From Escherichia phage C6, in sequence record MW679410.1: DNA of 64,000 nucleotides. One strand, given 5' to 3'. This document shows, piece after piece, positions 48,135-51,652 of the stretch. The notes under the pieces were generated by a model. That model worked only from the letters and a program-made list of their open reading frames with translations. It was not told the DNA's origin and did no database searches. The number at the start of each line of letters is the position of its first letter. Position 1 is the stretch's first letter. Position numbers and translations under genes: made by a program.

Positions 48135-49115
48135 TTATTTCAGAAGGGTAACTTCAGCGATTTCGTTCCAGTCATTTTTATCGGTGGCAATGAAGTCCGC
48201 CAGATAAAGAGCTGTACGTAATGATACGTTACGAAGACGAGATACATTAGCCTTCATCCATGCTAAAGCTTGATAAGTCTCAGCATCAGTCAGACCTCGA
48301 TTTTGCATCATATCAGTGGACAGGATAACGTCTTCAACACGAACCATAATCTCTTCGTTAGAGTGAACTCCGAGGTCTAAGTAAACTGAACGAGATACTA
48401 AAGCCTGGAGGTGTGGAGCAAGTTTAGTTCCACGCTCTAATTCACGGTCGATATCAACGTTGGTGATGAACACGATGGTGCCTTCGTATTCGAATTCTTT
48501 ATCGATGTTTTTGTCATCGAGATAAGAACTTGAAGTGCTCCAGCACACCTTACGTTTTTCACCGGTATCCAATGCTGCTTTTAACAGGTTCAGGATATCC
48601 ATATCAGAGAATACATCAACATCATCGATAAGAAGAACACTATTAGGGCCGCGGTTATTCCAAAGCTGCTCGTAAAGACCGATTCCACTAATCTTTCCGT
48701 TGATTGATTTATATTCGATAGTTTCATTTTCGTGGGCATTCTGTAATGCTTTATCCAAAGAATACGTTTTACCAATACCTGCGGCACCAGAGATGATAAG
48801 GGAACGAATTTTACCATCGATGATTCCGTTAGTCATCATGTTCATTACTTTAAAACGTTTGTTGATGCGATGTTTCATTTCTTCAGAGGATTCAGTAACA
48901 ACTGCAGGAGCTTCAGCACCTTCCATTTCAACGTCACATTTGAACACCCATACACCACGTTCAACACCATCAATCTGTACGAATACCTTGCCATCACCGA
49001 GGTGAGCTTCGGATTCATGAATTTTATTAGGGAACCAGGTTTTACCTGAACTCATGAACGTACCAGAGATTTCATTACCGCGATAGATACCTTTGTTGAT
49101 TTTGATAGTTAACAT
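48135..49115 (-). CDS. AAA-type P-loop ATPase
   Basis: Start set at MLTIKINKG with GGAG SD; Walker A GAAGIGKT; Walker B-like LLIDDVD. Confidence 0.7.
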   Translation of the reverse strand: MLTIKINKGIYRGNEISGTFMSSGKTWFPNKIHESEAHLGDGKVFVQIDGVERGVWVFKCDVEMEGAEAPAVVTESSEEMKHRINKRFKVMNMMTNGIIDGKIRSLIISGAAGIGKTYSLDKALQNAHENETIEYKSINGKISGIGLYEQLWNNRGPNSVLLIDDVDVFSDMDILNLLKAALDTGEKRKVCWSTSSSYLDDKNIDKEFEYEGTIVFITNVDIDRELERGTKLAPHLQALVSRSVYLDLGVHSNEEIMVRVEDVILSTDMMQNRGLTDAETYQALAWMKANVSRLRNVSLRTALYLADFIATDKNDWNEIAEVTLLK

Positions 49116-49152
49116 TATATTCTCCATTTCACTCAGTAGATTTGATAGGTCC

Positions 49153-49181
49153 ATAATAACATGCTCTACGAGGTTGTAAAC
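49153..49181 (-). promoter_or_regulatory. T4-type early promoter cassette
   Basis: Minus strand GTTTAC-N17-TATTAT; divergent from the plus-strand late promoter. Confidence 0.55.
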
Positions 49182-49217: not shown

Positions 49218-49973
49218 ATGATTATATCAGCAAAAACCATCGATGAATTGAACGAGAAGGTCCAGTTAGCATTAGACGATAACTGGCATCTTTTTGGTTC
49301 AACGGTAGTCCTTCCTAATACTGTAACTGATAACAGCGAACGATTCTTTCAAACGATGTCAAAATCAGTTACCCAGATTCCAGGACCTCCTGGACAAAAA
49401 GGTGATAAAGGTGACCCCGGAAATCCTGGCGACCCGGGAGTTCAAGGTGAACCAGGAAAGTCTTCATACCAATTATGGATTGATGAAGGTAATAGTGGAA
49501 CAGTAGATGATTTTTTGACTGCAATAGCAGGAAAGAGAAGAAAATCAGAAGTGTTTTGGAGTGGTATAAACGTTCTATTAACTAATGGTGCGACTTCAAA
49601 CATAATTAGTATTTTAAAGGGGATTCCGCCGACAGCAGGGACTCTATCTCCGTTTTTTAGAACTGCTGATGATAAGATGTGGCCATATAACCAAGACAGA
49701 AGCCTAATGTTTAAACTCAACCTTATTGGTAATTTTACAGGAGTCTCGCAAGCTCGAAGTATAACATTAAATTTCGTTGGAACCAACGGAAACACCTATA
49801 CACAGAACCGTCCAGAAAATGCTACAGATATTTTGTCTTTTACGACGTTCTTTAGCATTGATAAAGATGGGGCAATGGCAACCAATGGTACAGCTATAAC
49901 TGTTACGCCAAATGGCGGCAACTTTACAATAACCTCTGCATTGTTAGTAGCTGAACAAACAGTGACTTCATAA
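49218..49973 (+). CDS. collagen-repeat protein (251 aa), probable late/virion-associated
   Basis: Plus-strand ORF; nine Gly-X-Y triplets (GPPGQKGDKGDPGNPGDPGVQGEPGKS); Asn/Thr/Gly-rich beta-type C-terminal domain; own late promoter and terminator. Confidence 0.75.
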   Translation: MIISAKTIDELNEKVQLALDDNWHLFGSTVVLPNTVTDNSERFFQTMSKSVTQIPGPPGQKGDKGDPGNPGDPGVQGEPGKSSYQLWIDEGNSGTVDDFLTAIAGKRRKSEVFWSGINVLLTNGATSNIISILKGIPPTAGTLSPFFRTADDKMWPYNQDRSLMFKLNLIGNFTGVSQARSITLNFVGTNGNTYTQNRPENATDILSFTTFFSIDKDGAMATNGTAITVTPNGGNFTITSALLVAEQTVTS

Positions 49974-49980
49974 ACAAAAA

Positions 49981-49998
49981 AAGGGCCATATGGCCCTT
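49981..49998. terminator. bidirectional stem-loop terminator
   Basis: AAGGGCC-AUAU-GGCCCUU palindrome; U-run on the minus-strand side, A-run on the plus side; sits between convergent genes. Confidence 0.6.
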
Positions 49999-50236
49999 AG
50001 ATTGCACTCCAAAAATTATGGAATCTTATAGTATTGATAGCCCAGTTAACAAACCTGCGAGTTTGTTTGGGAGTTGGTTTACATACATATTTGACATTGA
50101 CTCGGCGTCCGGTTTCTTTACAGACGGCTTCAAGATACCAACGTCGAGTTTTATGAGGTCTTCCATACGATAGAAAGACGTTAATTTCTTCTTTAGCGGT
50201 AATAAGCGTTGTGGTTGTCAAGGTACACCTCTTCAA
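49997..50236 (-). CDS. hypothetical basic protein (79 aa)
   Basis: ORF. Confidence 0.5.
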   Translation of the reverse strand: MKRCTLTTTTLITAKEEINVFLSYGRPHKTRRWYLEAVCKETGRRVNVKYVCKPTPKQTRRFVNWAINTIRFHNFWSAI

Positions 50237-51203
50237 CGAACTTGTCCCAGAACTTCATATCTACCTTATCAGGCATACCATTCTTAGCGGCCCAGATAGC
50301 ATTAGTTTCGACTTCATCAACGATAGCTTCAAGTTCGGCCTGTACATCTTTAAAAGCATGAAGCCCTTGTTTGATTTCAAGGATAAACGGTGCTGTACGT
50401 AAAGGATATTGGAGGTCGCCTGTTTGATAGATTTCCTTCAACTGATAACCAGCACGATAAGCGTGGCTCAGAGCTTTCCAGTCAATACCTTCATTAGCTT
50501 CAGCTTTACGAGCACGTTCACCGTATTCCGCATCGAGCTTATTCAGAGATTGCTTGAGCTCGATTAATGACAGAGTGGTTTGGTATTTACGTCCGAGAAC
50601 AGTATAGAACGTTTGAGGTCCGGTTTTCTCATGGTTATGGAATACCCATTCACAGAACTCATTTTCAGGGAGTCGATGTTTGATATCTTCTACCTTAGTG
50701 CGACGTTGCTTAGTCGAACCGTCTTCTTGATAATCGACCCACTGTTCAGGAATCTGGTTAACAATAGCCAGTACACCACGCAGAGCAGCCAGTCGAGAAC
50801 CCTTAACGCCATATTTAGAAGCTTGCTTACGGACGTACCCTAAATAGGCTTTCATGTTGGTTGTATAGAACAGAGAACGGTTGCCTTGGATAAATTTCCA
50901 TACATCAGGTAAATCAGATTTAACCACCATTTCAGGTGGAGTGTGAATCATATCCAGAGCAACGGTTTCGCCTTCAGCCGCTAGTTTAAAGAAATATTTC
51001 AGACTGTAAAGCTCGTGGTCAACATCATCTTTAGTGTTTTTGGAAGCGGTGTTATTCGTATTCAGGTTGGTATGGTTCATAGCCGTACCTAACAGAATAT
51101 CACGCGGATGTGGAACAAAGATTTCTTTAAAATCGACATCAGATTCCGGAGTACTTGTTCCGTAAAGATGGCTACCGAAGTAGCCTTTCATAACTGTTCT
51201 CAT
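50193..51203 (-). CDS. polymerase-beta-superfamily nucleotidyltransferase (336 aa)
   Basis: N-terminal GSHLYGTSTPESDVDF matches the G[SG]x(9-13)DxD minimal NTase motif. Confidence 0.65.
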   Translation of the reverse strand: MRTVMKGYFGSHLYGTSTPESDVDFKEIFVPHPRDILLGTAMNHTNLNTNNTASKNTKDDVDHELYSLKYFFKLAAEGETVALDMIHTPPEMVVKSDLPDVWKFIQGNRSLFYTTNMKAYLGYVRKQASKYGVKGSRLAALRGVLAIVNQIPEQWVDYQEDGSTKQRRTKVEDIKHRLPENEFCEWVFHNHEKTGPQTFYTVLGRKYQTTLSLIELKQSLNKLDAEYGERARKAEANEGIDWKALSHAYRAGYQLKEIYQTGDLQYPLRTAPFILEIKQGLHAFKDVQAELEAIVDEVETNAIWAAKNGMPDKVDMKFWDKFVEEVYLDNHNAYYR

Positions 51204-51652
51204 TCTTTGTCCTCGAAGTGGATTACCGGACAGACCTTAGATTTACGAGCTTTGATATATTGAATAACGATATTTTCTTTAATTTCCTTTCCTTCACGTT
51301 TAGCTTTAATTAGTTGCCATTCCTTTTCTTCTTTACGTAAATCATACCAGGCCCATAAACTCATTATACAATACACAATACCAACGGCTACCGCTAGAAT
51401 AAGAGCCAGTGTAACCAGTCCTAAAATAAAACCCAAACCCAAACCAACAGGAGTACTCAATACAAAGAACTGCTCCAATATACCGGCACCTGCAACAGTT
51501 AAGCCGAAAATAGTACTACCTGCAAGCACAGAACACATAAAGAACACCCAAACCATTTTCCAGAAGTATGCGCATAATGAGCGCGGACGTGAATAACTGG
51601 CATAAAAACGGTCATGTAGTTTAACGTGCCAAGAGTTTGTATTGATAATCAT
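51200..51652 (-). CDS. membrane protein (150 aa)
   Basis: Three predicted TM helices; stop overlaps NTase start. Confidence 0.6.
   Translation of the reverse strand: MIINTNSWHVKLHDRFYASYSRPRSLCAYFWKMVWVFFMCSVLAGSTIFGLTVAGAGILEQFFVLSTPVGLGLGFILGLVTLALILAVAVGIVYCIMSLWAWYDLRKEEKEWQLIKAKREGKEIKENIVIQYIKARKSKVCPVIHFEDKE

Follow-up and report, generated by a model that had tools for sequence, protein, structure and literature searches.

What does a 336-residue nucleotidyltransferase do for the phage that encodes it, and does the membrane protein whose gene overlaps its start take part in that function? These questions are raised by two leftward open reading frames (ORFs) in a 64,000-nucleotide stretch of Escherichia phage C6 (sequence record MW679410.1), which we call the window. 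A first-pass annotation of this DNA had described a Pol-beta-superfamily nucleotidyltransferase (NTase), of a substrate not predictable from sequence, that is translationally coupled to a membrane partner. We find it close to certain that the 336-aa (amino acid) ORF is the ortholog of T4 NrdC.11 and belongs to the RlaP family. On balance we favour a reading of NrdC.11 as an RlaP-family enzyme that would restore nucleotides lost from cleaved tRNA before ligation. The membrane gene is a fast-evolving T4-like accessory gene in a variable slot upstream of nrdC.11 and not a dedicated partner. The features on which the argument turns are the following.

50193..51203, minus strand: nrdC.11 ortholog, RlaP-family (PF10127) Pol-beta nucleotidyltransferase, 336 aa (ORF, Pfam, phrog_388, AlphaFold2)
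51200..51652, minus strand: phage membrane protein, 150 aa, phrog_944 'RB69 ORF104c-like', upstream neighbour of nrdC.11 (ORF, phrog_944, AlphaFold2)
51129..51176, minus strand: NTase signature G10-S11 ... D22-x-D24, GSHLYGTSTPESDVDF, residues 10-25 (sequence, alignments)
51018..51020, minus strand: D62, inferred third metal-binding carboxylate (conservation, hhalign, position on strand 61-67 of the AlphaFold2 model)
51200..51203, minus strand: ATGA stop/start overlap of the membrane gene and nrdC.11 (direct sequence reading)
51210..51214, minus strand: GAGGA Shine-Dalgarno of nrdC.11, within the 3' end of the membrane gene (direct sequence reading)

By comparison with other phages, both ORFs are real genes and not chance ORFs, because full-length relatives of the NTase occur in 1547 phage records (tblastn) and homologs of the membrane protein in 789, the latter in T4-like phages only. 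The longest plus-strand ORFs opposite the two genes are at most 87 aa. The NTase begins with MRTVMKGYFGSHLYGTSTPESDVDF and carries the signature GSHLYGTSTPESDVDF where the first-pass annotation had placed it. Since both genes lie on the minus strand, the membrane gene is transcribed first and the NTase second; the annotation had this order right in its text and reversed in its title. At the junction the DNA reads GAG GAC AAA GAA TGA GAA CAG, such that the NTase ATG (51203-51201) overlaps the membrane-gene TGA (51202-51200), and a 6-nt spacer separates the GAGGA from the ATG.

The identity of the NTase is supported by several searches. Pfam RlaP (PF10127) matches residues 8-134 at E 3e-10 and 40.7 bits, above the gathering cutoff of 23 bits. 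The same family is precomputed on 119 of the 120 nearest cluster representatives, and its model gives 53 bits to a long-form relative from bacteria. The protein also matches phrog_388 'nucleotidyltransferase' at 5e-132, and a HMMER scan recovers 3154 clusters (50% identity) at E <= 1e-3, 776 of them at E <= 1e-30. Identity by tblastn falls from 98.8% in phage MN04 to about 82% in Tequatrovirus/T2, about 69% in Klebsiella T4-like phages, 44-52% in Acinetobacter and Aeromonas phages and 29% in Vibrio schizoT4 phages. The phage is a Dhakavirus, a T4 relative of the JS98/IME08 type. Over this region its DNA shares 94-96% identity with the Dhakavirus members MN04 and AnYang and runs collinear with IME08/JS98, and the IME08 annotation lists the matching order of nrdC.10, nrdC.11 ('nucleotidyltransferase'), 'membrane protein, similar to RB69 ORF104c', mobD.1, ... 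rI, tk. The window gene thus shows what marks the T4 nrdC.11 group, namely high full-length identity and a kept position between nrdC.10 and the mobD.1-tk block.

The predicted active site is conserved throughout the family. Alignments of 36 and 96 homologs, reaching down to 32% identity, keep G10, S21, D22, D24, Y131, K243, H247, R250 and P267 invariant, and S11, N56, D60, D62, D84 and R230 at least 90% conserved (D62 is invariant in the 36-homolog alignment). When the NTase profile is compared with one of 14 canonical bacterial RlaPs, hhalign reports 91% probability and E 1e-6 over 118 columns, pairing the GS motif (an invariant S/G in canonical RlaP), the DxD aspartates (the invariant D39 and D41), D62 with the invariant D72, and D84 with E94. 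The RlaP hallmarks, an hG[GS] motif and three catalytic aspartates, are accordingly found as G10-S11, D22, D24 and D62. By the homolog alignments and the RlaP profile comparison, the acidic triad, whose absence would have counted against a Pol-beta-superfamily enzyme, is therefore present and conserved.

The structural model agrees with this assignment. AlphaFold2, run on a 96-sequence alignment, gives the NTase a pLDDT of 94 and a pTM of 0.80. In this model an alpha/beta NTase lobe at the N-terminus is followed by a beta-rich insert at about 154-208, and residues 213-335 form a helical bundle. The NTase and helical lobes of the model appear to resemble PfRlaP, compared here by description and not by coordinates, whose crystal structure has an N-terminal NTase domain and a C-terminal helical domain with a cleft between them (PMC12776372). 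Neither the protein itself nor a profile of 36 sequences, used as sequence queries, found a relevant solved relative in a copy of the PDB that lacks the PfRlaP structure. Against the PDB, Foldseek returned only weak NTase matches, to 3c18 (E 0.013), HalB (E 0.026) and ANT(4'), and among predicted viral structures it matched NTases from other phages, jumbo phages included.

What the enzyme acts on is best approached through the family. Two Pseudomonas RlaPs, PfRlaP and PaRlaP, add one or two nucleoside monophosphates to RNA 3'-OH ends, do not act on DNA or protein, depend on or prefer Mn2+, and favour the broken anticodon-loop end of split tRNA; an RlaP step also improves the aminoacylation of repaired tRNA that had lost a nucleotide (December 2025 preprint, PMC12776372). 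In a comparative study of jumbo phages, the distribution of RlaP is reported to mirror that of RNA ligases, and the study reiterates the predicted role of RlaP in putting back nucleotides that RloC-type nucleases remove. The view that the substrate is not predictable from sequence is not supported, given a PF10127 match above threshold, the naming of its ortholog T4 NrdC.11 as an RlaP member and the use of RNA 3'-OH ends by the assayed RlaPs. By analogy with these enzymes, we think it likely that the window NTase adds nucleotides to RNA 3' ends. Among the functions that the annotation had listed, tRNA or RNA repair is the best supported, both by family membership and by the RNA-repair neighbourhoods of the bacterial relatives.

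These neighbourhoods were sampled in 80 bacterial and archaeal genome loci with NrdC.11-clade relatives of 30-51% identity. A canonical 255-aa RlaP (Pfam E ~1e-79) lies directly downstream on the same strand in 17 loci, and RtcB, RtcA, Hen1, Pnkp-ligase or Ro60/TROVE lies within four genes in 10; 24 of the 80 have a neighbour of either type. Within the NrdC.11 clade itself, then, the association with RNA repair is borne out, though in only a minority of loci. One Nitrosospira contig (L119, 1555-12057) carries the order Ro60 - RtcB - RtcA - long-form RlaP - canonical RlaP - Hen1 - MoxR AAA - DUF2201. In the tandem loci (L119, L089, L094, L095, L102, L116, L121, L124, L127, L132, L135, L144, L151, L154, L156, L160 and L164) a long-form RlaP of ~300-320 aa is followed by the canonical 255-aa protein, an arrangement that suggests two non-redundant NTases in one RNA-repair operon.

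In the proposed mechanism, RloC-type host anticodon nucleases would cut tRNA and excise a nucleotide, phage Pnkp (pseT) would heal the ends, NrdC.11 would restore the missing nucleotide and Rnl1 (rnlA) would seal the break, which would extend the classical T4 tRNA repair pathway by the NrdC.11 step. NrdC.11 itself would add one or two nucleotides, untemplated, with Mn2+ and any nucleoside triphosphate (NTP), to a broken RNA 3'-OH, with a preference for the 5' half that results when a tRNA is cut in its anticodon loop. The window contains no tRNA genes. For the specific role in tRNA repair against RloC, argued from the family, we put the chances at or just short of even. If true, NrdC.11 would complete the T4 Pnkp and Rnl1 counter-defence against 'smart' anticodon nucleases, and the retention of this laboratory-dispensable gene in more than 1500 sequenced T4-like phages would be explained.

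Several observations weigh against restoration of tRNA nucleotides by NrdC.11. Homology of the NTase to canonical RlaP is significant only over the N-terminal ~130 residues, by both Pfam and hhalign, and the long form and canonical RlaP do not align significantly in their C-terminal halves; the best local alignment, itself not significant, places K243-x3-H247-x2-R250 on K149-x3-Y153-x2-R156 of canonical RlaP, a pairing of the C-terminal lobes that is suggestive only. The family biochemistry comes from canonical Pseudomonas enzymes and a preprint source, and T4 NrdC.11 falls in cluster 5 of the RlaP sequence similarity network (SSN) while the assayed RlaPs fall in cluster 1a (PMC12776372). Since the long form and canonical RlaP are often adjacent in bacteria, the two need not share an activity. 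There is no RNA-repair neighbour at 56 of the 80 bacterial loci, and in the congeneric IME08, which encodes both pseT and rnlA, these lie ~90 kb from nrdC.11. T4 tolerates a deletion from nrdC.11 to mobD.3 in the laboratory, which is expected of a counter-defence gene and gives no positive support.

Some of these points would also fit an enzyme that tails RNA 3' ends with no role in repair, either tagging host or phage RNAs for decay or modifying tRNA or primer ends during host takeover. The assayed RlaPs accept any NTP and show only modest specificity in labelling rRNA, tRNA and fragments (PMC12776372), nrdC.11 is unlinked to pseT or rnlA in the phage genome, and most bacterial relatives have no RNA-repair genes beside them. 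Against such tailing, the contexts that are informative point to RNA repair (RtcB, RtcA, Hen1, Pnkp, Ro60), and RlaP halts after its first or second nucleotide at the anticodon-loop ends that it prefers. We consider this alternative unlikely.

The tandem bacterial operons raise a further possibility within RNA repair, that the long-form NrdC.11-type enzyme is a functionally distinct component and not a redundant copy of RlaP. Functional distinctness would explain why the two RlaPs stand side by side in RtcB/RtcA/Hen1/Ro60 operons; we hold it as a tentative and somewhat doubtful idea. If it is correct, the ~60-80-residue beta-rich insert and the divergent C-terminal lobe could alter substrate or nucleotide specificity, for example by picking the correct wobble nucleotide or by forming a heteromer with canonical RlaP, and T4-like NrdC.11 would supply the third enzyme that the Pnkp-Rnl1 pathway lacks, defeating nucleotide-excising anticodon nucleases such as RloC. 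The frequent tandem arrangement of long-form and canonical RlaPs in bacterial RNA-repair operons is in any case a useful by-product of the analysis.

The other functions considered for the GS...DxD signature fare less well than either of these. The first-pass annotation had named CCA-adding enzymes, antibiotic NTases, toxin-type NTases and cyclic-nucleotide synthases, none of which has hidden Markov model (HMM) support in Pfam, NCBIfam or PADLOC, and the latter two databases gave nothing meaningful for either protein. A CCA-adding enzyme or poly(A) polymerase (PF01743) was rejected, with no such Pfam or NCBIfam match at E <= 0.1, as was an MntA-type (MNT/HEPN) antitoxin, for which NCBIfam NF047752 scores 13.1 bits against a cutoff of 60 and no HEPN gene is nearby. 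Nucleotidylation of a small molecule or a protein, in the manner of kanamycin or lincosamide NTases, MntA-type antitoxins or DrrA-type AMPylators, would accommodate the generic Pol-beta fold matches. Those matches are no more specific than the fold, there is no antibiotic-NTase Pfam family on the protein, the MntA score is far below its cutoff and the assayed RlaPs left proteins unlabelled, so that this explanation seems to us very improbable.

The remaining question is whether the membrane gene is a functional partner. In 80 IMG/VR viral loci centred on nrdC.11, the membrane gene lies directly upstream in 12-13 and 0.5-2.3 kb upstream in about 28 more, where one to three unrelated genes or a homing endonuclease intervene; it is thus within 2.3 kb upstream in about 40 of the 80 and undetectable in the rest. 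It was not found in the 16-kb T4 region around nrdC.11, an HMM search included. Some upstream gene overlaps the nrdC.11 start in 44 of the viral loci, only 12 of which have the membrane gene in that position, and the overlapping genes usually encode soluble, unrelated proteins. The gene adjoining nrdC.11 upstream in Vibrio phage R10Z and Aeromonas phage CC2 likewise encodes a soluble protein. Small multi-span neighbours of the bacterial relatives are rare (2 of 71 upstream, 2 of 73 downstream).

A mosaic boundary is also seen at the junction itself. The NTase is 98.8% identical to that of MN04, whereas the membrane protein is 73% identical to its MN04 counterpart and 98.7% to that of AnYang, and this mismatch indicates that the two genes have different recombination histories. 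A dedicated NTase-membrane partnership is rejected on the variable adjacency, on the absence of the membrane gene from the T4 region, where MobD takes up the slot, and on bacterial relatives that almost never have a small membrane neighbour. The ATGA overlap is ordinary T4-style gene packing and is no evidence of a two-component system. This clear negative on the proposed partnership is a second useful by-product.

The same data bear on a Hailong-like pair or an anti-Hailong device, in which the product of the NTase would be an oligonucleotide such as oligo-dA that gates a membrane channel or mimics its ligand, the upstream membrane protein being the partner or host HalA the target. Hailong does combine an NTase with a transmembrane protein, and the window NTase gene does overlap a membrane gene. 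The similarity to HalB is at the level of fold only, with 13% identity and a TM score of 0.24-0.35 at the Foldseek E-value given above, and the kanamycin NTase and 3c18 are alike in this respect; HMMs place the NTase in RlaP, PADLOC finds no match, the membrane gene is adjacent in a small fraction of viral loci and in neither T4 nor the bacterial relatives, and the assayed RlaPs do not extend DNA. Hailong is defined by a conserved two-gene operon that joins a HalB-family NTase to a HalA-type tetrameric channel protein; membership in it was rejected because the likeness is one of fold only and the membrane neighbour is variable, and we regard a Hailong-like function as extremely improbable. A CD-NTase/cGAS-type second-messenger enzyme, synthesising or sequestering a signal and so interfering with host signalling immunity, shares only the GS...DxD signature. 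None of PADLOC, Pfam and NCBIfam links the protein to the CD-NTase/SMODS families, the fold searches returned nothing like cGAS or DncV, and the bacterial context is RNA repair and not CBASS; we give this reading a negligible chance of being right.

The membrane protein has a family of its own, matching phrog_944 at 2.7e-54 and no Pfam family. The annotation had given it three membrane spans and an overlap with the NTase start; the ORF and the ATGA overlap are as described, while the span count is doubtful in the light of the model. A continuous hydrophobic block covers residues ~25-103, and AlphaFold, at moderate confidence (pLDDT 72), predicts two long helices at 26-63 and 68-119. The model pairs an N-terminal strand at 2-4 (MIIN) with a C-terminal strand at 145-147 (VIHF), and both tails are net positive, which together imply an even number of spans. 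An N-in/C-in two-span hairpin is thus more likely than three spans, as far as the model goes. The phrog_944 family keeps an N-terminal motif, MxIN-NSWH...P-SLC-YFWK, and a C-terminal one, [FY][IL]KA[RK]K-K-CP-[IL], around a fast-diverging hydrophobic core. H9, D14, C27, C141 and P142 are strictly conserved in the predicted cytoplasmic tails, which may form a small Cys/His-containing cytoplasmic module. Kinship with the T4 NrdC.7 membrane protein was considered and rejected, the two being unrelated.

We further note that homing endonucleases have landed repeatedly in the slot just upstream of nrdC.11. T4 carries MobD there (L002, 12430-13209), and in another Dhakavirus contig (L007, 3198-4001) an inserted 267-aa HNH-like ORF separates the membrane gene from nrdC.11.

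The two genes lie in a tightly packed, early/middle leftward unit, which the sequence suggests to span ~3.2 kb and about eight genes. The elements that would bound it, and a small gene at its downstream end, are the following.

49981..49998, minus strand: terminator-like hairpin AAGGGCCATATGGCCCTT with a T-run, likely end of the leftward unit (consensus scan, sequence)
53257-53232: terminator-like hairpin upstream of the unit (consensus match only)
53217-53190: promoter-like site upstream of the unit (consensus match only)
49997-50236, minus strand: small DUF7279/phrog_8921 gene (3e-37), no ATG start, probable start TTG 50221

The DUF7279 gene overlaps the 3' end of nrdC.11 and is part of a ~1 kb insert that IME08 does not have. 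A plus-strand gene of 251 aa (49218-49973), lying between nrdC.10 and nrdC.11, encodes a collagen-like G-x-y stretch (about residues 56-81) together with a tail-needle-knob domain of the Sf6 type (Pfam PF16532, 7e-33). This knob/collagen gene is likewise missing from the IME08 position, and in full length it is restricted to a few T4-like phages (MN04, 97% identity; AnYang, 81%; some Klebsiella and Citrobacter T4-like phages, 42-50%); the knob domain alone is common to P22/Sf6-like, Vi1-like and rak2-like phages. The gene resembles a moron, with a structural-type function inserted among early genes, and the hairpin at 49981-49998 could serve as terminator for both the DUF7279 gene and the convergent knob gene. 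Beyond the insert, the NrdC.10 ortholog (48135-49154, minus strand; phrog_1250 at 2e-163) also adjoins nrdC.11 in T4 and IME08. It shows weak similarity to P-loop AAA/STAND NTPases (AAA_14, AAA_22, nSTAND5), all under the Pfam cutoffs, and a possible C-terminal helix-turn-helix.

The nrdC.11 finding is real but ordinary, and the gene is already known. The first-pass annotation was correct as to the superfamily and too agnostic beyond that. The idea that such an enzyme restores nucleotides is already published as a prediction, and biochemistry exists at the level of the family, so the window adds another ortholog and not a new system. Among known systems, the likeness of the window NTase to the kanamycin nucleotidyltransferase ANT(4') and the structural-genomics NTase 3c18 is of fold, with 8-10% identity and no antibiotic-resistance HMM match, and HalB of Hailong (PDB 9dbh), a protein-primed maker of oligo-dA, has no HMM kinship with it and differs in chemistry from the assayed RlaPs, which are inactive on DNA. 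With canonical RlaP, the window NTase has in common PF10127, the GS, DxD and third-Asp motifs and, through the bacterial members of its clade, a context of RtcB, RtcA, Hen1 and Pnkp; it differs in being about 80 residues longer, in its beta-rich insert at ~150-210 and in belonging to SSN cluster 5 and not 1a. The closest counterpart is T4 NrdC.11 itself (NP_049709, 336 aa), which shares its length, its leftward-strand position and its phrog_388 and PF10127 assignments. The surroundings of the two genes differ: directly upstream of nrdC.11, T4 has the MobD HNH homing endonuclease where the window phage has the phrog_944 membrane gene, and between nrdC.10 and nrdC.11 the window phage carries an extra ~1 kb, made up of the knob/collagen gene and the DUF7279 gene.

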